Assembly (NCBI GenBank): GCA_041599115.1
Contig: JBFHXF010000002.1
Location: 1 to 53,808, forward strand
Direction of reading: 5' to 3'
Source: Acidimicrobiia bacterium
GTDB lineage: Bacteria; Actinomycetota; Acidimicrobiia; Spongiisociales; ZC4RG35
Length of the DNA: 53,808 nt
The position numbers and the translations under genes are program-made. The notes below the pieces were generated by a model. That model ran no database searches, was not told the DNA's origin, and saw only the letters and a list, made by a program, of their open reading frames with translations. Below are positions 2,817 to 43,838 of this stretch, in pieces (the first letter of the stretch is position 1; each line of letters opens with the position of its first letter).

Positions 2817-3689
2817 TCAGACCTGCCAGCGATGCACATTGATTGCTCCCGAGTCCAGGCCGACCCTTCCGCAGAATGACTCGAAGAGATCCCGGGGAAC
2901 CCCCATCCATTCCAGGTCCCCCAGACTTTCCGCGATGGGAGCATCCAAACGCAGTGTCGTCAGCTCGCGGTACAGAAACGCCTTGGCGAGGTTCTCCTGC
3001 AAGGTGGTGGCCAGCCGGTCGGCACTCCGCACAGAAACTCCCCATTCCGCTGCGGATGCGGGTATGAGTTCGAGCCGTGGATAGCGGGCCAACACCGAAG
3101 AGGCGGACTTGGCGCCCCAGCCGGGCAGACCGGGGACACCATCGGCGGTGTCGCCTACCAGCGCCAGATAATCAGGGATCGACTCAGGATGAACTCCGAA
3201 CTTCTCGACTACCGCCGCCTCGTCATACATCTTCTGCTCCCGCCTGGCATAGGTGACGATCCGATCCCCGATCACTGACTGAGTCAGATCTTTGTCCGGA
3301 CTGACGATCACGACACGGTCGACGTCCTCGACCCAGCGAACCGCGGCTGCGGCCAGTGTGTCATCCGCCTCGAATTCGTAGTTCTGCCAGACCACGACCC
3401 CGATGGCGCGCAACGCTTCCTCGGCCAGAGGGAACTGGGCCAGCAAAACCTGGTCGATCCCCGCCGAGGTCTTGTAGGCGGGAAACATTCCGTTTCGAAA
3501 CGACTCGATGACAGTGTCGAAACTGGCCGCCAGATGGGTGACATCCGGCTCGCGCAAGAGCGCCAGAGTCGACTCGATGATCCCCAGGGTCGCCCTTATA
3601 TCGCCGCCATCGGCACCGATGACGGCCTCTTTCCGCCCGAAATGGGCCCGGAATAACTCATAGGTACCATCGAGAAGGTGGAGCAGCAC
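2817..3689 (-). CDS. 5'-3' exonuclease (Pol I N-terminal / FEN-like nuclease)
   Basis: 290 aa with a GTG start. 'LLHLLDGTYELFRAHF', 'YEFEADDTLAAAA', 'IVSPDKDLTQ' and 'YLALVGDTADGVPGLPGWGAKSA' match the PIN-like and H3TH motifs of 5'-nucleases. Confidence 0.85.
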   Translation of the reverse strand: MLLHLLDGTYELFRAHFGRKEAVIGADGGDIRATLGIIESTLALLREPDVTHLAASFDTVIESFRNGMFPAYKTSAGIDQVLLAQFPLAEEALRAIGVVVWQNYEFEADDTLAAAAVRWVEDVDRVVIVSPDKDLTQSVIGDRIVTYARREQKMYDEAAVVEKFGVHPESIPDYLALVGDTADGVPGLPGWGAKSASSVLARYPRLELIPASAAEWGVSVRSADRLATTLQENLAKAFLYRELTTLRLDAPIAESLGDLEWMGVPRDLFESFCGRVGLDSGAINVHRWQV

Positions 3690-4824: not shown

Positions 4825-5780
4825 TCAACAAACGCGCAATCGAGGCCATCGAAGTGAGCGATACCGACGAATTGCTCCGTGTCATCGGTGGTTACTGCAA
4901 TGCCCACGCATGGGACGATCTGATGGAGTTGAGGATCCGTTGCCGGGAAGCCATCGGGCGCGGAAAGCAACTCTGGGGCGTGGAGGAGCACATCCGATAC
5001 AGGCTCGCCTTGGAGGCGCCGGCTGCGATAGCCGGCCCGGTTGTCTCAGAAGGACAGGCTCGCTTTGCACTGGGGCCACTTGCCGAGGTCGCGGCCAGCA
5101 CCAAGACCTGGCCCGAACTGAGCCAATACCTGGCACCTGGGCCGGATCGAAGAACTGTCGCGGCCGAACGCGTCATCCGGGGCGACGACGTTGCAGAGGA
5201 AATCCCCGATCTGCCGGCTGTCCTCATGGATTGGGAGCCGGCCTATCCGATTGCCACCTACAAGGCCGACAGGGTAGAAACACCAGCACCGGGATGGCCC
5301 CTTCTGGCTGAAGTCGATCTCGTCGACGCACCTGACGTAATCGAGGATCCAGCATCGGAAGCGGCCCTATCCGATCTGGTCCAGCCCTGGGTTGAAGAGT
5401 CGAATGGTCGCTGCCAGACAGTGACGGTATCGGGAAACCATCTGGGAGCAATCAGCGCCCTCGGCTTGAGAGTGGCGCGCACTGGTCTGGTGTCGACCAA
5501 GGAGGCGCTGCAGTGGTTGGGATGGGTGGGAGCCTCAGGCGGCGCACACGGCCGGAGGAGGGGCGCCGCCGCCGGCCGCTATCTCGCCTGGTGGGTGATT
5601 GCCGCTCTAGCCGATCTCGATTGGCCTGCCGATCCGGGGGAAATCGGCGACGCGGCGAACGGGTTGAAGTGGCACTGGTTCGATGACGGCAGTCCCGACA
5701 CAGGGTGGAATCTCCGCATCAGCGTCGCCGACCCGGTCGGCGGCCTCGCCTGGGCAGTCAGTGCATCCGACAGTGTTTAG
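4821..5780 (+). CDS. Conserved hypothetical protein (about 319 aa)
   Basis: The long ORF continues past the sulfurtransferase stop. TTG at 4821 overlaps that stop (TTGA). The protein is Trp-rich and acidic, and I recognise no catalytic motif. Confidence 0.6.
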   Translation: MINKRAIEAIEVSDTDELLRVIGGYCNAHAWDDLMELRIRCREAIGRGKQLWGVEEHIRYRLALEAPAAIAGPVVSEGQARFALGPLAEVAASTKTWPELSQYLAPGPDRRTVAAERVIRGDDVAEEIPDLPAVLMDWEPAYPIATYKADRVETPAPGWPLLAEVDLVDAPDVIEDPASEAALSDLVQPWVEESNGRCQTVTVSGNHLGAISALGLRVARTGLVSTKEALQWLGWVGASGGAHGRRRGAAAGRYLAWWVIAALADLDWPADPGEIGDAANGLKWHWFDDGSPDTGWNLRISVADPVGGLAWAVSASDSV

Positions 5781-7318
5781 GCCTCGTCGATGAGGACGGT
5801 GTGGCGGTCCCAACCGGTTGCACCGCTTGGCGCCGGACGAGTGTTCTGTTCTGTCTGGGTATTGCCCTCGCCATCGGTTGCCCGCACCCGGAGGACGTGA
5901 AGACCGGGCGGCGCCTCCCAACGGATCTTCCATTGGCGCCAACTGTCGTTGCTCAGCGATTCGGAGAGCTCGGCCTCCACCCATTGGGCGCCTTCCCCCA
6001 GCTGCACCTCGACCTTTGATATTCCCCGGTTGGGGGCCCAGGCCACTCCTGCAACGATCCTCTCCCCTTCATACGGCAGGCGAGCCTCGCGCGGTGTGTC
6101 GATCCGGCTCTGGGTCTTTATCGGGGCCTCCTTGGCCCAGCCACGCGGAACCCAGTAGGCGTCGAAGTCGTTCCACCCGGTCAATTCGATCTCGGACAGC
6201 CATTTTGTAGCCGACACGTAGCCGTAGAGACCGGCCACGACCAGTCTCGCGGGAAAACCGTGTTCGAATGGAAGCGGCTCACCGTTCATCCCCACTGCGA
6301 CCAAGGACTCACGGCCGTCATACACCGCCTCGACAGGAAACCCAACAGTGAAACCATCAACGGATCGGCCCACGAGTTGTTCGGCGTCTGATCTGATGCC
6401 GGCACGGTCGAGAATCTCCTTCAGCGGCACACCGAGCCACTTGGCATTGCCGACCAGATCTCCGCCAACTTCGTTGGAAACGCATGAGAGGGTCACGTAC
6501 CGCTCAACCAGTCGCATGTCGAGCAGATCCGCATACGAGATCGAGTACGGCTGATCGACACGCCCGGCGATGGTCAGTCTCCAGTCCGGGAGGTTCACGC
6601 GGGGGAGAGTGAAGGCGGTGTCGATTCGGTAGAAATCCGCGTTGGAGGTCACGACGGTGCTCAATCCGTCGATCCCTAATTCGGCCCCCGGGGGCGAAGA
6701 CGGCACCGTCTGGGCCGGTGATGGCAGAGCGACGTCGGCCCGTCCGGCGAGCGATCGCTTACCCTTCTCGAGAAGCGACCTGCCGACGCCCGCCGAGATG
6801 GCGGCAAGGCCGAACACGGCAGTCAACCCGACGAGTAGAGCCCGGCGAGATCTGTCGGCCACACCCTCTCCCGGATCGAGGGCTGGTTTGGGAGCCAATC
6901 CATAAAGCCATTGGAGTGACCCCAGCCCGCTCAGTGCGGAGAGACCGCCGGGGATGATGGCGAGCCCCAAACCGACCTGGGGATCCCTGGCCGAGGCGAG
7001 AGCCGCGATCACACCAAATCCCACGAATGCCGTGATCGCGAATCCGAATCTCTCCCTGGACACCATCCCGACCGCAGCGCCGATGAGAAGGGTGACTGAG
7101 GCGATTCCGATCAGAAGGGCCAGTTTGTCGTTAGTGCCGAAAACCGAGATCGCCAACTCTTTGATCGTCTTGGGGACAACGTCGATCACCCAGTTCCCCA
7201 GACCGGCGATGAGTGACGGCCACCCTCCGAACAGGCCGGCGGCGAGTTCCGACACACCCAGTCCAAGGGCGGCCGCGGCCGCGCCGATGAGACCATCGCG
7301 CCAATTGGTTCTTTTCAC
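5777..7318 (-). CDS. Molybdopterin-dependent oxidoreductase (sulfite-oxidase fold) with N-terminal multi-TM domain
   Basis: 513 aa. The N-terminal half has several hydrophobic helices. The C-terminal half has 'YVTLSCVSNEVGG', 'NAKWLGVPLKEIL', 'HGFPARLVVAGLYGYVSATKWL' and an Ig-like dimerisation-type tail, typical of the SUOX/YedY family. Confidence 0.85.
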   Translation of the reverse strand: MKRTNWRDGLIGAAAAALGLGVSELAAGLFGGWPSLIAGLGNWVIDVVPKTIKELAISVFGTNDKLALLIGIASVTLLIGAAVGMVSRERFGFAITAFVGFGVIAALASARDPQVGLGLAIIPGGLSALSGLGSLQWLYGLAPKPALDPGEGVADRSRRALLVGLTAVFGLAAISAGVGRSLLEKGKRSLAGRADVALPSPAQTVPSSPPGAELGIDGLSTVVTSNADFYRIDTAFTLPRVNLPDWRLTIAGRVDQPYSISYADLLDMRLVERYVTLSCVSNEVGGDLVGNAKWLGVPLKEILDRAGIRSDAEQLVGRSVDGFTVGFPVEAVYDGRESLVAVGMNGEPLPFEHGFPARLVVAGLYGYVSATKWLSEIELTGWNDFDAYWVPRGWAKEAPIKTQSRIDTPREARLPYEGERIVAGVAWAPNRGISKVEVQLGEGAQWVEAELSESLSNDSWRQWKIRWEAPPGLHVLRVRATDGEGNTQTEQNTRPAPSGATGWDRHTVLIDEA

Positions 7319-16643: not shown

Positions 16644-17615
16644 TCAGCGGGTGATCTGCATTCCGTTCACGGCAGCCGACAGATCGCCGTCGAGCAGGGC
16701 CGCCCTGATCCCCTCGGCGACTTCGACGGCTACCCGGAGTTGAGCCTCCCTGGTCGAAGCGCCCAGATGCGGGGTCAAGACCAGATTCGGCGCCATCCGA
16801 AGCGGACTGTCAGGAGGAAGAGGCTCGCTCTCATAGACGTCCAGGGCGGCGCCCGCAATTCTCGCCTCGCTCAGGGCGCTTGCGAGCGCGGCCTCATCGA
16901 CCACACCACCCCTTGACACATTTATCAGCACCACCCCCGGCCTCATCCGGGCAAAGGCTTCATCAGAGATCATTCCGTGGGTTTCTACATTGAGGGGAAC
17001 GTGACATGAGATCACGTCGGCGGAGTCGAGAACCGCATCGAAACCGGTGAGTGTGATTCCCAGCTCGACCGATCGCTCCTGGGTGAGGTAGGGATCGAAG
17101 GCAATCACTTTCATGCCAAATGCCTGACACCGCTTCGCCACCTCGGCTCCAATCCTGCCGGCACCCACCAGACCCAGAGTTCGACCGTGTAGTTCGGTGC
17201 CCATGAACGCAGACCGTTCCCACCTGCCCTCACGAACCGAATGATCAGCGGGAGGGATCGATCGGATTGCAGACAACATGAGAGCCATGGTGAGCTCCGC
17301 CGCGGCGATGGTGTTGCCGTTCGGAGCGTTCATCACAGCGATTCCCCGCGCGGTGGCAGCTCTTAGGTCGATGTTGTCTATCCCCACGCCTGCCCGGCCG
17401 ACGACTGCCAGTCGGGGAGCCATTGCCATCATCGCGTCGTCTACTGTCGTGGCACTGCGGACTATTAGGGCGGAAGCCCGGCCGAGGGCCTCCTTGAATA
17501 CATCCGACGATGAGTCGTCGATGTTGACCACCTCGAATCGATCATCCTCGGTGAGAACCTCCAAGCCCTTTGGAGAGACACGATCCGTGGCAACGACGAC
17601 CAGACCACCGCTCAC
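16644..17615 (-). CDS. D-isomer-specific 2-hydroxyacid dehydrogenase (phosphoglycerate dehydrogenase / hydroxypyruvate reductase-like, no ACT domain)
   Basis: 323 aa. NAD-binding 'GLVGAGRIGAEVA', plus 'HVPL' and 'LINVSRGGVVDE...TPHLGAST'. Confidence 0.85.
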   Translation of the reverse strand: MSGGLVVVATDRVSPKGLEVLTEDDRFEVVNIDDSSSDVFKEALGRASALIVRSATTVDDAMMAMAPRLAVVGRAGVGIDNIDLRAATARGIAVMNAPNGNTIAAAELTMALMLSAIRSIPPADHSVREGRWERSAFMGTELHGRTLGLVGAGRIGAEVAKRCQAFGMKVIAFDPYLTQERSVELGITLTGFDAVLDSADVISCHVPLNVETHGMISDEAFARMRPGVVLINVSRGGVVDEAALASALSEARIAGAALDVYESEPLPPDSPLRMAPNLVLTPHLGASTREAQLRVAVEVAEGIRAALLDGDLSAAVNGMQITR

Positions 17616-18718
17616 CTCAGGACCTCACTCAGGACCGTGAGAAGTTCGTCCAACTCATCCAGGGTGTGGTCTCCCATGTGGCCGATGCGGAGCGTCGAGT
17701 CCTTGAGCTTGCCGTAACCGGATCCGATCACCCATCCCCTGGCCAGCATCTCCGCGACCACAGATTGGCCACCTTCTCCTCCGGGCATGGTCACGCACGT
17801 GACCGTGGGCGAACGGTGTCCCTCCACTGCGACAACCCCGACCTCGACGCCGTCTTTGGCCATCGTATCGACCCACTCGATAGTCCGGCTCTGCATTGCG
17901 GCATGACGGGCCCATCGAGCCTCCAATCCTTCCAAGGCCATGTGCCGTAGCTGGATCTGAAGGGCATACATCAGCGACACGGCCGGCGTTGCGGGCGTCT
18001 CGTCCCTCGACAAACTGTCGTAAAGGGGGATCAGGTCGAAGTAGTAACCCTTGTGTGTAGCGGAACGAGATCTGTTGATCATCGCTTCGGAGGCAGCGCC
18101 AAACGCCAGACCTGGCGGCAGCGCAAGAGCCTTCTGTGATCCGGTCACCACGAAATCGAGACCCCATTCGTCGGTTCTGACCTCGGCTCCACCGACGCCG
18201 GTGACGGAGTCGACCAGGAGCATCACTTCGTCTTCCTTCCCCACAACCTCGGCTATCGCCGCGAGGTCTTGAAGGGCTCCCGTCGAAGTTTCCGACTGGG
18301 AGAGGGTCACAGCGTGATAACCCCCGCGAGCCAGCCTGTCGGCCAGTTCACCTGGATCATGCACCTGCCCCCATTCGACATCCCATACCTCGGTGTCGTG
18401 ACCGCAGTTCATCGCAATTTGGGAGAACCTCTGAGAGAATGCCCCGTTGACCAGACTGAGGACCCTGCCACCGGCCACACCGTTGCGCACCGCAGCTTCC
18501 ATGAGGCCGGTGGCCGAGGACGTCGAAACGACGACCGGTCGTGCCGTCAAGAACACCTTCTGCAGGCCGCCTTGGATCTCGCCCATCAGTTCGTGGATGG
18601 CGGCGCCGCGATGGCCGATCATCTGGCGGGTTTGCGCCTCGAGGATCTCGGGACGCACCTCGGTCGGGCCGGGAAGAAAGAAGTGCCCGGAGGGCACGCC
18701 ACCTTGACTTACCATCAC
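17612..18718 (-). CDS. Class V aminotransferase (serine-glyoxylate / alanine-glyoxylate / phosphoserine aminotransferase-like)
   Basis: 368 aa. It has 'LLVDSVTGVGG' and 'VTGSQKALALPPGL', which contains the PLP lysine in an SQK motif. It overlaps the downstream dehydrogenase gene by 4 nt. Confidence 0.85.
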   Translation of the reverse strand: MMVSQGGVPSGHFFLPGPTEVRPEILEAQTRQMIGHRGAAIHELMGEIQGGLQKVFLTARPVVVSTSSATGLMEAAVRNGVAGGRVLSLVNGAFSQRFSQIAMNCGHDTEVWDVEWGQVHDPGELADRLARGGYHAVTLSQSETSTGALQDLAAIAEVVGKEDEVMLLVDSVTGVGGAEVRTDEWGLDFVVTGSQKALALPPGLAFGAASEAMINRSRSATHKGYYFDLIPLYDSLSRDETPATPAVSLMYALQIQLRHMALEGLEARWARHAAMQSRTIEWVDTMAKDGVEVGVVAVEGHRSPTVTCVTMPGGEGGQSVVAEMLARGWVIGSGYGKLKDSTLRIGHMGDHTLDELDELLTVLSEVLR

Positions 18719-28502: not shown

Positions 28503-29402
28503 TCAGCCGACGAAACGGGTGATCTCATCTACCAGTCGATCGGGATGTGTCCACGGGACTTCGTGACGGCCACCAACCAACTCGACGACCCGGGGCCCGG
28601 CCAGTGAACCGGCCAGCTGATACTGCCAGGACGGAGGAACCAACTGATCTTTCGTGGGGATTATCACAAGGGTCTCCGACGCTACTCGCCCTATCCAGGC
28701 CCGTCCATCAAAGCGAAGAAGAGCAAGAGTCGCTTGCGTGCCGGCCTCGATGTCGCGCCTATGGGTTTCCTCCCACAGCCAGCGGGCATGCCGGCGCTCC
28801 ACAGCCCCGGTGGCGAGAAGGTACCCCGACCTGACTTCTGCCGTTCCGAGCCCCGTGAGCCGCTCCCAGGCGCGGGCCACCATCGCACCGACGACTCGCA
28901 AAGTCCGATGCGGCTCGGGTGTGTGGCTGAAGGTGGCGATCAATACCAGTCTGTCCACCCGACCGGGATGACGGTGCGCGATTGCCTGAGCGATGGTGCC
29001 ACCCATGGAGTAGCCGACCACGGTCACCGACGACAGATCGAGCTCATCTAGCACACCGGCCAGGTCGTCTGCAGCCTCTTCGACCTCGAACCGATCACGG
29101 GCCAATGACGAGAGACCGTGGCTGCGATGGTCCACCATCACCACCCGGTATTTCTCGGCCAGGGCAGGGGCGACCCGGTACCACTCGGCGGCTGAGGAGC
29201 CGGCCAGACCGTGAATCAGCAGAAGAACCTTCGCTCCCTCGGGACCCGTCTCACGAACCAGGAATTCCCGATCCCCCACGAAAACCGTATGTCCGGGGCT
29301 CCTCCAGGGATGTTCCTGGGGTGGTCGGAAACGCGGATTGACGATCGGGCCCAGGACCCGCCACAGAATGACGAACGCAATAAGCCTTCTGATGAATCTC
29401 AA
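28503..29402 (-). CDS. Alpha/beta-fold hydrolase with N-terminal membrane anchor
   Basis: 299 aa. It has 'LLLIHGLAGS' and the nucleophile elbow 'VVGYSMGG'. The TTG start overlaps the upstream gene's stop (TTGA). Confidence 0.85.
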   Translation of the reverse strand: MRFIRRLIAFVILWRVLGPIVNPRFRPPQEHPWRSPGHTVFVGDREFLVRETGPEGAKVLLLIHGLAGSSAAEWYRVAPALAEKYRVVMVDHRSHGLSSLARDRFEVEEAADDLAGVLDELDLSSVTVVGYSMGGTIAQAIAHRHPGRVDRLVLIATFSHTPEPHRTLRVVGAMVARAWERLTGLGTAEVRSGYLLATGAVERRHARWLWEETHRRDIEAGTQATLALLRFDGRAWIGRVASETLVIIPTKDQLVPPSWQYQLAGSLAGPRVVELVGGRHEVPWTHPDRLVDEITRFVG

Positions 29403-29854
29403 GGCCTCAAATCTCCCACTACGAAGGTGTACTCGGCAACGGGCACCCCGCCCAGCAGATGCTCGTCGATGATCCGATCCAGCTTGTTGATATCCAGCCC
29501 GGCGTACCAGGTGCCCTCCGGATAGACGACCGCGATACAGCCTTGTTCACAGATCCGAAGGCAATCCACTTTTGAGCGCAACACAGTGCCGTCGCCAGGT
29601 TGGGCGGGGTCTGGATCGATCTCCATGTTCCCCTGCCATTGGGGAGGCGCCGATGTGAGACCCATCCCCTTTAGCCTTTGCTTGAGATGGCTCCACAGCA
29701 TGTTGGTCTCTTCTCTCGGTGCGCATTTCGGATTGGTCTGATCCGCGCAGAGGAAGATGTGACGTTGTGCTCGCGGAATCGACAGAGATTCTGCGATGTT
29801 CTCGAGACGCTCCGTGGACTTCATGCCCTGATGGGTAGCAGAACCATCGCTCAA
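29399..29854 (-). CDS. Thioredoxin-like [2Fe-2S] ferredoxin-domain protein
   Basis: 151 aa. The Cys pattern is 'HIFLCADQTNPKC ... VDCLRICEQGC', followed by 'VVYPEGTWY'. The TTG start at 29854 overlaps the selD stop (TTGA). The ATG at 29824 is an alternative start. Confidence 0.7.
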   Translation of the reverse strand: MSDGSATHQGMKSTERLENIAESLSIPRAQRHIFLCADQTNPKCAPREETNMLWSHLKQRLKGMGLTSAPPQWQGNMEIDPDPAQPGDGTVLRSKVDCLRICEQGCIAVVYPEGTWYAGLDINKLDRIIDEHLLGGVPVAEYTFVVGDLRP

Positions 29855-30876
29855 GGCAAGACAGAGATGCTGTCTCCGGCGGTGATGGTGCCAATCACCG
29901 ATGAGGACGGGAGGGCAGATACGAATCCGTTTGCCTCCTTTTCGGGGAGAGCGACCAGCAGCCCACCTGAGGTCTGGGCGTCAACCAGGATCTTGAGCTT
30001 TTGGGGCTCGACCTTGCTGACAACTTGATCATTCAGGGCTTCGAGATTGCGGCCCGAGCCGCCGGCCCACATTCCGATTTCCAGCAACTCGGCAACGCCG
30101 TCGAGGACCGGGACCGAGCTGTTCTCGACCACGGCACCGACTCGTGAGGCGATGGTCATCTCCCGCAGGTGCCCCAGAAGGCCGAAACCGGTTATGTCGG
30201 TCATGGCGGTGGCCCCTCGTTTGACAGCCTCGATCGAGGCCCTGTCGTTGAGCGCGGCCATGACCTCGATAGCGACACGGGCGAGGTCATCTGGGCAGCG
30301 GTCACGCTTGATCGCCGTGCTGATGATCCCGCTTCCGAGTGGTTTGGTCAGGACAAGGACATCCCCGGGCCGTGCTCCTGCATTTGTCACCACCTGATCG
30401 ATATGGGCGACTCCCGAGACGGCGAATCCATAGTGGGGCTCCGACCCGTCGATGGAATGACCCCCGACAACCGTGCACCCCGCATCGGACATGACATCCA
30501 TCCCGCCCGAGATCACTTCGGCTGCGAGGTCGAACGAAAGTTCATCGCGTGGCCATGCGATGAATTGGAGAGCGGTCAGCGGCATCGCACCCATCGCATA
30601 GACATCACTCAGGGCATTGGCTGCGCTTATCCGGCCCCAGTCGTAGGCCGAGTCGACCACCGGCGCAAAAATGTCGATCGTCTGCACCAGGGCGCGGCCC
30701 TCCCCCAGCGCGAAAACGCCGGCGTCGTCCGCGGTGGCCATGCCGACGATGAGCGCGTCGTTGTGGCTTGCCGGGTGATCTCTAACGGGACGCAGAACCT
30801 GCGCCAGCTCGGTTGGCCCGAGTTTGCAGGCTCAGCCGGCCCCGTGTGAGTATTTGGTGAGTCGAAAGTCGTTCAC
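29851..30876 (-). CDS. selD: Selenide, water dikinase (selenophosphate synthetase), selenocysteine-containing: UGA at 30832-30834 read as Sec
   Basis: The track ORF (29851-30741) lacks the catalytic N-terminus. Reading upstream in the same frame gives (V/M)NDFRLTKYSHGAG-UGA-ACKLGPTELAQVLRPVRDHPASHNDALIVGMATADDAGVF. This aligns with E. coli SelD '[25 protein letters not shown]', with the UGA exactly at catalytic Cys17. The GTG start is at 30876, and total length is 341 aa, as expected for SelD. Confidence 0.9.
30798..30830 (-). promoter_or_regulatory. Candidate bacterial SECIS stem-loop immediately 3' of the selD UGA
   Basis: The mRNA after the UGA reads G CCUGC AAA CUCGG GCCAA CCGAG CUGGC GCAGG. 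The lower stem is CCUGC/GCAGG (5 bp), followed by an internal loop. The upper stem is CUCGG/CCGAG (5 bp) with apical loop GCCAA. The upper stem starts 9 nt after the UGA. Folded by eye only. Confidence 0.5.
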
Positions 30877-30971
30877 ACACCTAGTTAAGCCCTTGCGTGT
30901 GCATAGAAGCGTCCCCCACCCACCCCCATGCACACGCATCGCGTCAGGCGATCGGTAATCTCAGCTGCCCC

Positions 30972-41013: not shown

Positions 41014-41619
41014 TCATAAATGGTGTTTGGGTCTCAGATCGACGATGTCCTCTTCGGTGTCGACATCGCGCGGTGCGAGATCAGACGACCACACCTCGTT
41101 CACCCACTCGGGATGTGCCTGCCAGAGGCGGGCGGCGCCCTCGTCACCTTCCAGGGACATCAACCTGGGCCAGAGCGAACGATTGACGATCACCGGGTTT
41201 CCTGAGGTGTACCTGTACTTCGGTACCGTCACTGCCTGATCGGATCGTCGGTGTGAATCGAGGAGCTCAGAGACCAGCTCCACCGAAACATCGGGCTGAT
41301 CGCCAATCACGATTAGCGCCATATCGCAGCGCGACAATCGCGTCAAAGCGTCCAACCCGACTCGGATCGAGGACGCGATGCCTTCCTCCCACTCCGGATT
41401 CTCAATGACTCCTGCCTCGCCAAGATCACAATTCGCGATTATCCGGTCGGCTTCATATCCCAACACCAACCAGATCTCATCCGTCTCGAACTCTTCAGTC
41501 CTGCGCAAGACATGTTCGAGGAGGTTGGTTTCGCCCCACGGCTCGAGTTGCTTTGGACGACCCAGACGGCGGGAACTCCCGGCGGCGAGAACCAGTGCGG
41601 CAACTGACATGGGCGGCAC
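41014..41619 (-). CDS. MobA-like NTP transferase (molybdenum cofactor cytidylyl/guanylyltransferase, MocA-like)
   Basis: 201 aa. It has 'ALVLAAGSSRRLGRPKQL' and 'IVIGDQPDV'. Confidence 0.8.
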   Translation of the reverse strand: MPPMSVAALVLAAGSSRRLGRPKQLEPWGETNLLEHVLRRTEEFETDEIWLVLGYEADRIIANCDLGEAGVIENPEWEEGIASSIRVGLDALTRLSRCDMALIVIGDQPDVSVELVSELLDSHRRSDQAVTVPKYRYTSGNPVIVNRSLWPRLMSLEGDEGAARLWQAHPEWVNEVWSSDLAPRDVDTEEDIVDLRPKHHL

Positions 41620-41636
41620 GCTAGTTGGGCGCTGCT

Positions 41637-42392
41637 TTAGACCCGTAAAGCTCTCCCGATCAGGTCCACCGGCTTATCAACCGAGTATCGAGCGGCGATC
41701 ATCTCACCGAGAATCGCAATAGCGGTCTCCCCGGCCGTGCGTGATCCTATGTTCAGCCCGATTGGACCGTGGATGCGATCGACCTGGTTCTCTCCGAACC
41801 CGTCCGCGAGGAGCCTTTCCCGCCTTCGCGCCGTCGTCTTCGCCGAACCCATCGCACCGACGTAACGGGCGTCCGACGGAAGGACGATCGGCCAGAGCGG
41901 GTCTTCGAACCTGCGGTCATGTGTCAGAACCACGACAAAAGCGTGCCGGTCAAAGCTGCCGGTATCACACACATCGTCGGGCCATCCCACCCTCAGCTCG
42001 TCGGCGTCCGGAAATCGGTCCGATGTGACGAAGGCCGGGCGTGGATCGGCGACCACCGTTCGAAATCCGAGCAGAGAGGCATGGGTCACCAATTCCTGGG
42101 CGATGTGGACCGCACCAAATACGAACAAGGTCGGACGCGGTGTGAGAACTTCGTAGAAAAGCTCGTCGTCGCCGTAGGAGAGTGTCACGCTTTGTTCGCG
42201 ATCGATCAGCGATATTGCGTCGGCCCTCACCGACTCAGAGATGTGCGCCGGCAGCCGGCCGGCCAACAGAGATCCATCGCCGTCCAAAACAGCCTTACTC
42301 CCAGACTGCCCGCCTGCAATGAAAGTGACTACCGCACCGGCCGAGTCCGACTCGACCAGAAGTTTGAGAGAGCGTGCGATCTCATCGCTCAC
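41637..42392 (-). CDS. XdhC-family accessory protein (second XdhC_CoxI-like segment plus Rossmann-like C-domain)
   Basis: It has '[26 protein letters not shown]', '[14 protein letters not shown]' and 'YVGAMGS...T'. The GTG at 42392 overlaps the stop of the upstream ORF (GTGA). The track start at 42428 is the alternative. Confidence 0.8.
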
Positions 42393-42697
42393 CACGGTTC
42401 GATGTACACCTGAATCGTCCCACCACATGCCAGACCCACGGCAAAAGCGTCCTCATCGGCGATCCCATAAGTGACCAGCTCGGGAGTCTGGGTATCCAGA
42501 ACAGCGAGGGCGCGAACCACGACGTCGTTCTCGACACACCCACCTGACACGGACCCGGCCATCTCGCCCTCCGAGGAGACGAGCATGGCGGAACCGGGAC
42601 CCCGGGGTGAGGAGCCGTAAGCCCTGACCACTGTGGCCTTGGCAACTCCTTTTCCCTGCCTCTGCCACTGATCCACCATTTCCAGTGTTTCGCGCAT
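42389..42697 (-). CDS. XdhC/CoxI N-terminal-domain protein (stand-alone, 102 aa)
   Basis: [56 protein letters not shown]...[13 protein letters not shown] is the canonical XdhC_CoxI domain. I take the start at ATG 42697, because the track start at 42808 overlaps the upstream gene. Confidence 0.75.
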
Positions 42698-42722: not shown

Positions 42723-43838
42723 TCAGTCGCCGATGCGGAATCTCGTGAGAGCTCCCAGCCCGTAGACATCCAGTGGGGAAGCTGTTTCGATCTGGAAAAC
42801 ATCGCCACCGGCTTCGACGACCAACTCCATCACGGCTCCGACCACATCGTCGATTGCAGACATCGACCCGAAGCAGATCGGGCAATCATCCCCTGTCCGA
42901 CTGACGTGCCCGAACTCGGTGCATACCAATCCGGGGCGTAGGAAGGGGCCGGCCACAACCAGGGTCTCTATTGCCTGAGCGTTGGAGTAGTCGATCACCG
43001 AGCCGAGGCCGAGCACGGCGAGCCCACCGCTCCACGCCGTGTCACAGACACGGCCGGCCAAAGCGATGTGGCGATTCCTCCTCACCTCGGACCGCAAGTC
43101 GAGGAGAGCCATCTTCAGGGTGACGTCGGTCATGGCCTGGGGACGGCTTGGAAAAGACGCTCTGTACAGACCTTCCAGATAGGGGTGGAGCTCCCGACCG
43201 ATTTCCTCGACCATCTCGTCGGCCGCACCGATAGCGATGTAGTCCAGGGAATGATCCAGATGCGCCTCCATCAGGATCGAACCGGCTTCCTTCCACATCT
43301 TTGAGGTCTCTTCCTCGGCGCGGGAACGCACGGTGAACTCGTCGTATCCGGAAAAGCCGCCGTAGTTCGACTTTCCGATATCGGCCGTCAGTGAACCTTC
43401 GATCTCCTCGATGAAATCCCCGGTGGCGAGGAACACCCGCGCCCGGGTCCGATCGGCGATCAGCACTCCGCCGCGCAGCGGTCGCGGGCTTGCCCGCAGG
43501 GGCCGGAGATAAGGGCGCGGTCCGACCGCGGACACGCTGCTCACCGGGTGGGTCAGCGATTCGACCACGAATATGTCGTCGGCTTGTGAGGCAAAGATTG
43601 CATAAGAAGGCGCCGACCGCTGCTCGAGGTCGTCGGCAAGACCTCGGATACGATCGACATCAGCGCGAATACTCTTCTGGACTTCTTTCGGAAACGTGTC
43701 GACTCTGTCGCGAACTGGCCGCAGCAAGTCCGATATCAGGGCCGACATCTTCATGGGGAATGGATGGGGGCGATCGATGTAGATCGAGATCAGCGAGCCG
43801 TCTGGACTCCTCAACCCGGCGATCGGATCTATGAGCAC
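42723..43838 (-). CDS. Bacterial eRF1/Pelota-like (baeRF-family) protein with C-terminal zinc-ribbon insert
   Basis: 371 aa. The GTG start is preceded by AAGGAG. It has '[12 protein letters not shown]' and a central loop '[22 protein letters not shown]'. The C-terminal eRF1-domain-3-like segment reads '[26 protein letters not shown]...C...CPIC...[21 protein letters not shown]...GLGALTRF'. Confidence 0.65.

Follow-up and report, generated by a model that had tools for sequence, protein, structure and literature searches.

Does the selD gene of an uncultured Acidimicrobiia-like lineage encode a complete selenophosphate synthetase in which an in-frame UGA is read as selenocysteine (Sec), or does it encode only the shortened protein recorded for it? 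The gene is located on the minus strand, at 29851-30876, of a complete 53.8-kb metagenomic contig with a G+C content of approximately 61%. This contig, analysed over its whole length, is referred to here as the window, and our searches of the host's genome were confined to it. A sequence-only reading had proposed that this selD encodes Sec, its N-terminus being hidden behind the in-frame UGA, and every element of that interpretation that could be tested held. We consider it very likely that 29851-30876 is a complete, functional selD whose catalytic N-terminal residue is a Sec specified by the UGA at 30832-30834.

Reading frame, identity and conservation of selD

From 30876 down to 29851, the minus-strand frame comprises 341 sense positions and a stop codon, with a single in-frame TGA (30834..30832). 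Its translation reads VNDFRLTKYSHGAG*ACKLGPTELAQVLRPVRDHPASHNDALIVGMATADDAGV... and terminates at the stop codon 29851-29853, the UGA lying in the context VNDFRLTKYSHGAG-UGA-ACKLGPTELAQVL. The list of open reading frames (ORFs) opens selD at ATG 30741, which yields 296 amino acids (aa), and the protein database entry for this gene (P0001) is the same shortened call. The sequence and coordinates given by the sequence-only reading, including this start of the ORF track at Met 30741, proved exact.

In profile searches, done with Cys written at the TGA, TIGR00476 (selD) matched residues 5-314 of the conceptual 341-aa protein with 372.7 bits (cut-off 125), and NF002098 matched from residue 2 with 346.9 bits (cut-off 299). 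The best match among solved structures is the Escherichia coli SelD (3u0o, E = 6.7e-76), aligned over residues 2 to 315. In this alignment YSHGAG-[TGA]-ACK is superposed on SHGAGCGCK, with the TGA on Cys17 and K18 on Lys20; because of this superposition, the TGA is assigned the Cys17 position and the next Lys that of Lys20, as had been proposed from the HGAGCGCK motif. The columns corresponding to D51, D68, N87, D91 and D227 (E. coli numbering), which we take to be the ATP and metal ligands of this AIR-synthase-type enzyme, show no variation when the protein is aligned with 27 homologues (A1), and the same residues align to 3u0o. The identity of the gene and the position of its UGA are established by these comparisons.

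The closest database proteins are named as SelD of Acidimicrobiia or Actinomycetota, and two groups can be distinguished among them: 1) full-length Cys-type homologues of about 340 aa, 58-67% identical (for those aligned), which read RLTxYSHGAGCACKL; 2) short calls of 300-318 aa, 64-69% identical, which start just past the site. The length of 341 aa, which had been described as normal for SelD, agrees with the 340 aa of the full-length relatives. Truncation by gene callers had also been foreseen: beside the window call, 13 close homologues are recorded at 300-318 aa, and all three of those for which DNA was checked (from ENA, NCBI and JGI) carry TGA in frame at this very codon, following RLT(G/R/K)(Y/F)SHG(A/S)G. 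This codon is TGA in related loci from three archives and in two GTDB Acidimicrobiia metagenome-assembled genomes, or MAGs (L001, L002, L003-5, L006 and L007).

To place these loci in a broader context, GTDB was scanned with one genome per species. The scan returned 80 loci, 66 of which could be classified at the UGA codon. TGA was found in 44/66, originating from more than 12 phyla, and TGC or TGT in 22/66; with the window and L001-L005 counted in, TGA occurs in 50 loci versus 22 for TGC or TGT. The phyla among the 66 classified loci include Actinomycetota, Gemmatimonadota, Chloroflexota, Bacillota, Verrucomicrobiota, Latescibacterota, Marinimicrobia and others, and Myxococcota/Desulfobacterota-type lineages are likewise represented. 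Across homologues the loop reads HGAG[C/U]ACK. In a neighbour-joining tree, the window SelD falls in a clade formed of short (Sec-type) calls only, with a sister clade that mixes Cys and Sec types.

The UGA and the codons preceding it are both conserved. The N-terminal 14 residues are kept in Cys-type (RLTxYSHGAGCACKL) and TGA-type orthologues, and among ten Actinomycetota-type Sec genes the 10 codons before the TGA show proportions of synonymous (pS) and nonsynonymous (pN) differences of 0.65 and 0.16, respectively (ratio 0.24). These codons are under purifying selection, and it follows that this stretch is translated in the selD frame. TGA is also the stop codon of 32 of the 40 window genes with family support; as it is an ordinary stop in the window, the standard code applies and recoding of the selD UGA would be specific to this site.

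Could translation nevertheless start at Met46 (30741), giving a 296-aa SelD-like protein devoid of the Gly-rich loop, with the upstream similarity as a relic? This Met is the first canonical start past the TGA, and it is the call on record. Such a start seems very improbable, however, as Met46 is not conserved as a start (orthologue calls begin at varied positions, at 300-318 aa) and as the 45 residues before it, to which the sequence-only reading had drawn attention, are conserved at the protein level with synonymous turnover. Mutagenesis of the E. coli SelD has reportedly shown that the loop with Cys17 and Lys20 is needed for activity.

As for the start of the full-length gene, GTG 30876 is backed by homology: Cys-type homologues begin 4 residues ahead of RLT, and in orthologues L001 and L003 the frame is closed by a stop codon located 7 codons before RLT, in keeping with such a start. 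An in-frame ATG (30940-30942, minus strand) is found 22 codons upstream of the GTG and downstream of the preceding stop; a start at ATG 30942 would give a 363-aa product and would lie only about 30 nucleotides (nt) from where the divergent greA is estimated to begin. Homology favours GTG 30876 over ATG 30942 as the probable start, without proving it. In the ENA orthologue L001 (9757-9798), the TAA located 7 codons before RLT is followed by a stretch with no ATG, GTG or TTG up to the Sec codon (PESISPIRLT...); this selD may initiate at a rare ATC or ATT codon, or its start may be otherwise unusual.

The candidate recoding signal and the selenocysteine machinery

A 7-bp hairpin (hairpin 2, Table 1) lies 33 nt after the UGA and is a candidate SelB-binding bacterial Sec insertion sequence, or bSECIS (-9.4 kcal/mol, z = -2.4). 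In an ungapped alignment of 47 Sec-type selD genes, where hairpin 2 corresponds to columns 36-42 paired with columns 46-52, 82% of cells are paired, versus 33-52% when the 3' partner is slid. Double changes are found in 29 cells and involve six of the seven pairs; the observed values were not attained in any of 500 shuffles, and RNAalifold recovers the core of the hairpin independently. Six or more of the seven pairs can form in 36/47 Sec-type genes, whereas this is the case for 1/22 Cys-type genes at the same columns. The hairpin is conserved, it covaries, and it is specific to Sec-type genes.

The element of E. coli fdhF is the archetype of the bacterial SECIS, and the apical GCAGGU(N)CUGC of hairpin 2 presumably resembles it. 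Published limits for bSECIS elements are a loop of 3-9 nt, a stem of 4-16 bp, a spacing of 16-37 nt and a minimum free energy (MFE) of -7.5 kcal/mol or lower, the loop having a G within its first two positions, usually followed by G or U (PMC13188914 Fig. 2). Hairpin 2 falls within all four of these limits.

Hairpin 2 is also translated: the peptide (E/D)LAQVLR, located just past the active site (window 30787-30810; alignment A2 columns 31-54), corresponds to its codons (CUG GCG CAG GUN CUG CGN). This motif accompanies TGA-type selD, being shared by most Sec-type SelDs over more than 12 phyla, and erodes in Cys-type proteins. As hairpin 2 is coding, the structure of the RNA constrains the protein, which would explain why the motif is fixed in most Sec-type SelDs.

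Between the UGA and hairpin 2 lies a smaller hairpin 1. Most Sec-type genes have a hairpin at this place, formed by CUCGG/CCGAG in those with Glu and by GGUCC/GGACC in those with Asp. Its role could be that of a spacer or helper. It is a less likely SelB site, as the sequence of its loop is not conserved among Sec-type genes, different subgroups use different registers, and the 14 nt that separate it from the UGA fall short of the 16-nt minimum.

In the mechanism that we propose, a SelB-type elongation factor with Sec-tRNA(Sec) would bind the hairpin GGCGCAG-GUU-CUGCGUC (30789-30805) inside the coding sequence and deliver Sec to the UGA 33 nt upstream, with hairpin 1 (30808-30822) filling the gap between the two. 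The product, with its predicted loop G-A-G-U-A-C-K, would make selenophosphate from ATP and selenide. We infer that Sec is actually inserted, that SelB binds and that selA, selB and selC are carried elsewhere in the genome.

Several observations weigh against Sec insertion at this site. The 33-nt spacing of hairpin 2 is near the top of the 16-37 nt range. The single-sequence MFE fold favours a long-range stem that includes the UGA, pairing GAGCCUGC with GCAGGUUC around hairpin 1; this stem was rejected as a conserved element, being 68% paired in the 47 Sec-type genes versus 67% in shuffles, with little covariation. ARAGORN found no tRNA, hence no tRNA-Sec, in the whole 53.8-kb window, tblastn with the E. 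coli SelA and SelB found neither in the window nor in the syntenic Acidimicrobiia loci, and tRNA-Sec was not found in the syntenic loci of the window's relatives. Finally, an Rfam scan of the whole window gave no match at gathering score, to either a SECIS or a tRNA-Sec model, a result that carries little weight because Rfam coverage of bacterial SECIS elements is described as poor (bioRxiv 10.64898/2026.04.03.716425).

The Acidimicrobiia clade seems to keep selA, selB and tRNA-Sec away from selD, as none was found at the loci searched. The same tblastn searches, which covered all fetched loci, located selA and selB on the flanks of selD in numerous taxa outside this clade, Cys-type Actinomycetota for the most part, and ARAGORN found tRNA-Sec adjoining a Sec-type selD in a Gemmatimonadaceae MAG (L036:11017-11115) and in Paenisporosarcina sp. 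TG20 (L039:5109-5205). Within the Acidimicrobiia, Ilumatobacter coccineus and I. nonamiensis have SelD, SelA and SelB, with 15 and 10 selenoproteins, respectively (PMC5029168 Tables S1 and S2), and 84/84 complete Actinomarina genomes carry selA, selB, selC and selD, with a SelD that is itself a selenoprotein in roughly half of these genomes (bioRxiv 10.64898/2026.04.03.716425).

The failure to find selA, selB or tRNA-Sec within the window would also fit a UGA that is decoded, but not as Sec: near-cognate Trp or Cys could be inserted, or Cys carried on tRNA-Sec at low selenium, in which case selenium would not be strictly needed. In other systems, cases of Cys being inserted at Sec codons have been documented. 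There is very little to recommend this explanation here, since UGA is the predominant stop codon of the window, a conserved GU-loop hairpin is a hallmark of SelB-dependent decoding, and selA, selB and selC are present in relatives of the same class. The TGA might also stem from faulty sequencing or assembly, or from a mutation that recently inactivated a Cys codon and made selD a pseudogene. Only one substitution from TGC or TGT would be required, at a locus where close Cys-type orthologues occur in the same syntenic position, but this explanation is strongly disfavoured and effectively excluded by the presence of the same TGA in 44 species representatives and in assemblies obtained independently through three archives, by the purifying selection on the codons before it, by the Sec-type-specific hairpin alongside it and by the rest of selD being intact, with all the presumed ligand residues kept.

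Table 1. Positions of the features of the selD locus within the window
Feature	Position	Strand	Description
Full-length selD coding sequence	29851..30876	minus	341 codons including Sec15, plus stop TGA 29851-29853; start GTG 30874-30876 (favoured)
In-frame UGA, probably read as Sec	30832..30834	minus	Residue 15; aligned to E. coli Cys17
Hairpin 1	30808..30822	minus	CUCGG-GCCAA-CCGAG, between UGA and hairpin 2; -8.1 kcal/mol, z = -3.2
Hairpin 2 (candidate SelB-binding bSECIS)	30789..30805	minus	GGCGCAG-GUU-CUGCGUC, 7 bp; apical loop GUU 30796-30798
Internal Met46 codon	30739..30741	minus	False start adopted by ORF list and database gene call
orfX	29399..29824	minus	141 aa, Cys-rich, directly after selD; weak resemblance to thioredoxin-like [2Fe-2S] ferredoxins
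Alpha/beta-fold hydrolase gene	28503..29402	minus	PF00561, 117 bits; start overlaps orfX stop by 4 nt

The selD neighbourhood and other genes of the window

The locus is syntenic with those of relatives, which have a divergent greA followed by selD, orfX and the alpha/beta hydrolase gene on one strand. Beyond the hydrolase gene are a convergent gene of the penicillin amidase family, then a UbiA-family gene and caa3 cytochrome oxidase genes. Close Cys-type selD orthologues occur at this same syntenic position, and hairpin 2 has been lost in 5/6 of them (2-4 pairs left). The sixth (L090:3004-3069), a Cys-type orthologue from the sister clade with TGC at 3010, retains 6/7 pairs of hairpin 2 (ACCCAG-GUG-CUGGGG). 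From its sequence, this hairpin looks like a relic SECIS from a recent Sec-to-Cys change; SECIS remnants of this kind have been described by Zhang et al. 2006 (PMC1794560). With this orthologue included, the locus clearly illustrates switching between Sec and Cys in one and the same syntenic position.

The gene directly after selD, orfX, has no Pfam match, and its match to NCBIfam NF041612 (E = 5e-10) is below the cut-off. Its Cys pattern is C-x7-C...C-x3-C-x3-C. The orfX homologues, labelled '(2Fe-2S) ferredoxin' in their sources, are 140-145 aa long across loci and 72-80% identical across the clade, and are thus more conserved than SelD. The overlap between orfX and the hydrolase gene is repeated in related loci, as is the gene order, and the three genes selD, orfX and hydrolase are found together in 12/12 Acidimicrobiia loci examined, with Sec-type and Cys-type selD alike. 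The loci with this arrangement (the window, L001-L007, L086-L088 and L090-L092) include three that were picked through orfX rather than selD.

In this clade, selD might head a conserved unit of three genes, with orfX and the hydrolase acting in an as yet undescribed pathway, either to provide SelD with selenium or reduce it for this enzyme, or to make use of selenophosphate. This seems doubtful, the alternative being plain conservation of gene order, as the neighbouring housekeeping genes greA, mgtE and nadE and the caa3 oxidase genes are also syntenic. A comparative-genomics survey of selenium genes mentions neither the ferredoxin nor the hydrolase (PMC5322559). The arrangement is the only lead from this locus that is even mildly new.

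Searches of the window brought up no other gene related to selenium. Further selenoprotein genes were sought among in-frame TGA junctions filtered by composition, and none of the three best, which were inspected, was convincing: the first consists of two adjacent genes (MocA-like and DUF4332), the second lies in a non-coding frame and the third immediately precedes a ClpS-like ORF (so named on visual inspection of its translation). Genes for a maturation factor of the XdhC family and for a MocA-like cytidylyltransferase are found together at 41014-42428 (minus strand), apart from a molybdopterin-binding oxidoreductase at 5777-7318 (minus strand). The XdhC/MocA-like pair was rejected as a YqeB/YqeC marker, as it matches general XdhC and MocA models below cut-off, with no YqeB or YqeC among the matches. 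A class V aminotransferase (17612-18718) was similarly rejected as a cysteine desulfurase or Sec lyase, since it best matches aspartate-glyoxylate and phosphonate aminotransferases. A 371-aa ORF at 42723-43838 (minus strand) has a marginal Pfam match to the 'bacterial archaeo-eukaryotic release factor family 10' (30.3 bits, cut-off 27.1) and adjoins a DUF2017 gene and a ClpS-like ORF (also named by eye); it is probably unconnected with UGA recoding.

The window selD among known SelD proteins

The SelD of Haemophilus influenzae was reportedly the first Sec-type example, and the dependence of such an enzyme on selenium for its own synthesis is an old idea. The discovery of Sec-type SelD is credited to Guimaraes et al. 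1996, at least as cited in bioRxiv 10.64898/2026.04.03.716425. Among the selenoprotein families of bacteria, none is as widespread as FdhA and SelD (PMC1794560), Sec-type SelD being catalogued in second place (PMC1794560; PMC5029168 Table S3; PMC13188914). By 2016, Sec-type selenophosphate synthetase had been counted in 383 organisms (PMC5029168 Table S3).

The reading of the window selD as a Sec-type gene is thus correct but ordinary: it extends the list of known carriers by one uncultured lineage of Acidimicrobiia and leaves selenium biology as it stands. Its main value is for annotation, as the window selD and at least 13 close homologues are recorded at 296-318 aa, truncated at the N-terminus and with the catalytic loop missing. 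The 341-aa reading also marks the organism as a probable user of Sec, and predicts that further UGA-interrupted genes would be found elsewhere in its genome.

Compared with the Cys-type SelD of E. coli (3u0o), the window protein keeps the motif SHGAG-x-x-C-K and the presumed ligand residues. The E. coli enzyme has Cys17, encoded by a Cys codon without any SECIS, whereas the window protein would have Sec15, and the loop reads G-A-G-C-G-C-K in the former and would read G-A-G-U-A-C-K in the latter. With respect to the bacterial SECIS consensus (bSECISearch model), hairpin 2 is alike in loop, stem, position and energy; the window element differs by the second small hairpin that fills the gap between the UGA and hairpin 2.

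The resemblance is closest with the Sec-containing bacterial SelDs, which share the enzyme family, the UGA at the Cys17 equivalent, a SECIS within the coding sequence just downstream and truncation by gene callers. The host, an uncultured Acidimicrobiia-like lineage, is different, and identity to the best full-length homologues on record reaches only 60-67%; nothing differs mechanistically. Within the same class, Sec-type selD genes are found in Actinomarina (order Actinomarinales), where they encode proteins of 342-346 aa and show Sec/Cys polymorphism among close relatives. There, selA, selB and selC are located away from selD, and it is for Actinomarina, not for the window, that this machinery is documented (bioRxiv 10.64898/2026.04.03.716425). 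Actinomarina belongs to another order than the window's host and has streamlined marine genomes of 1.1 Mb, in contrast to a window with about 61% G+C.

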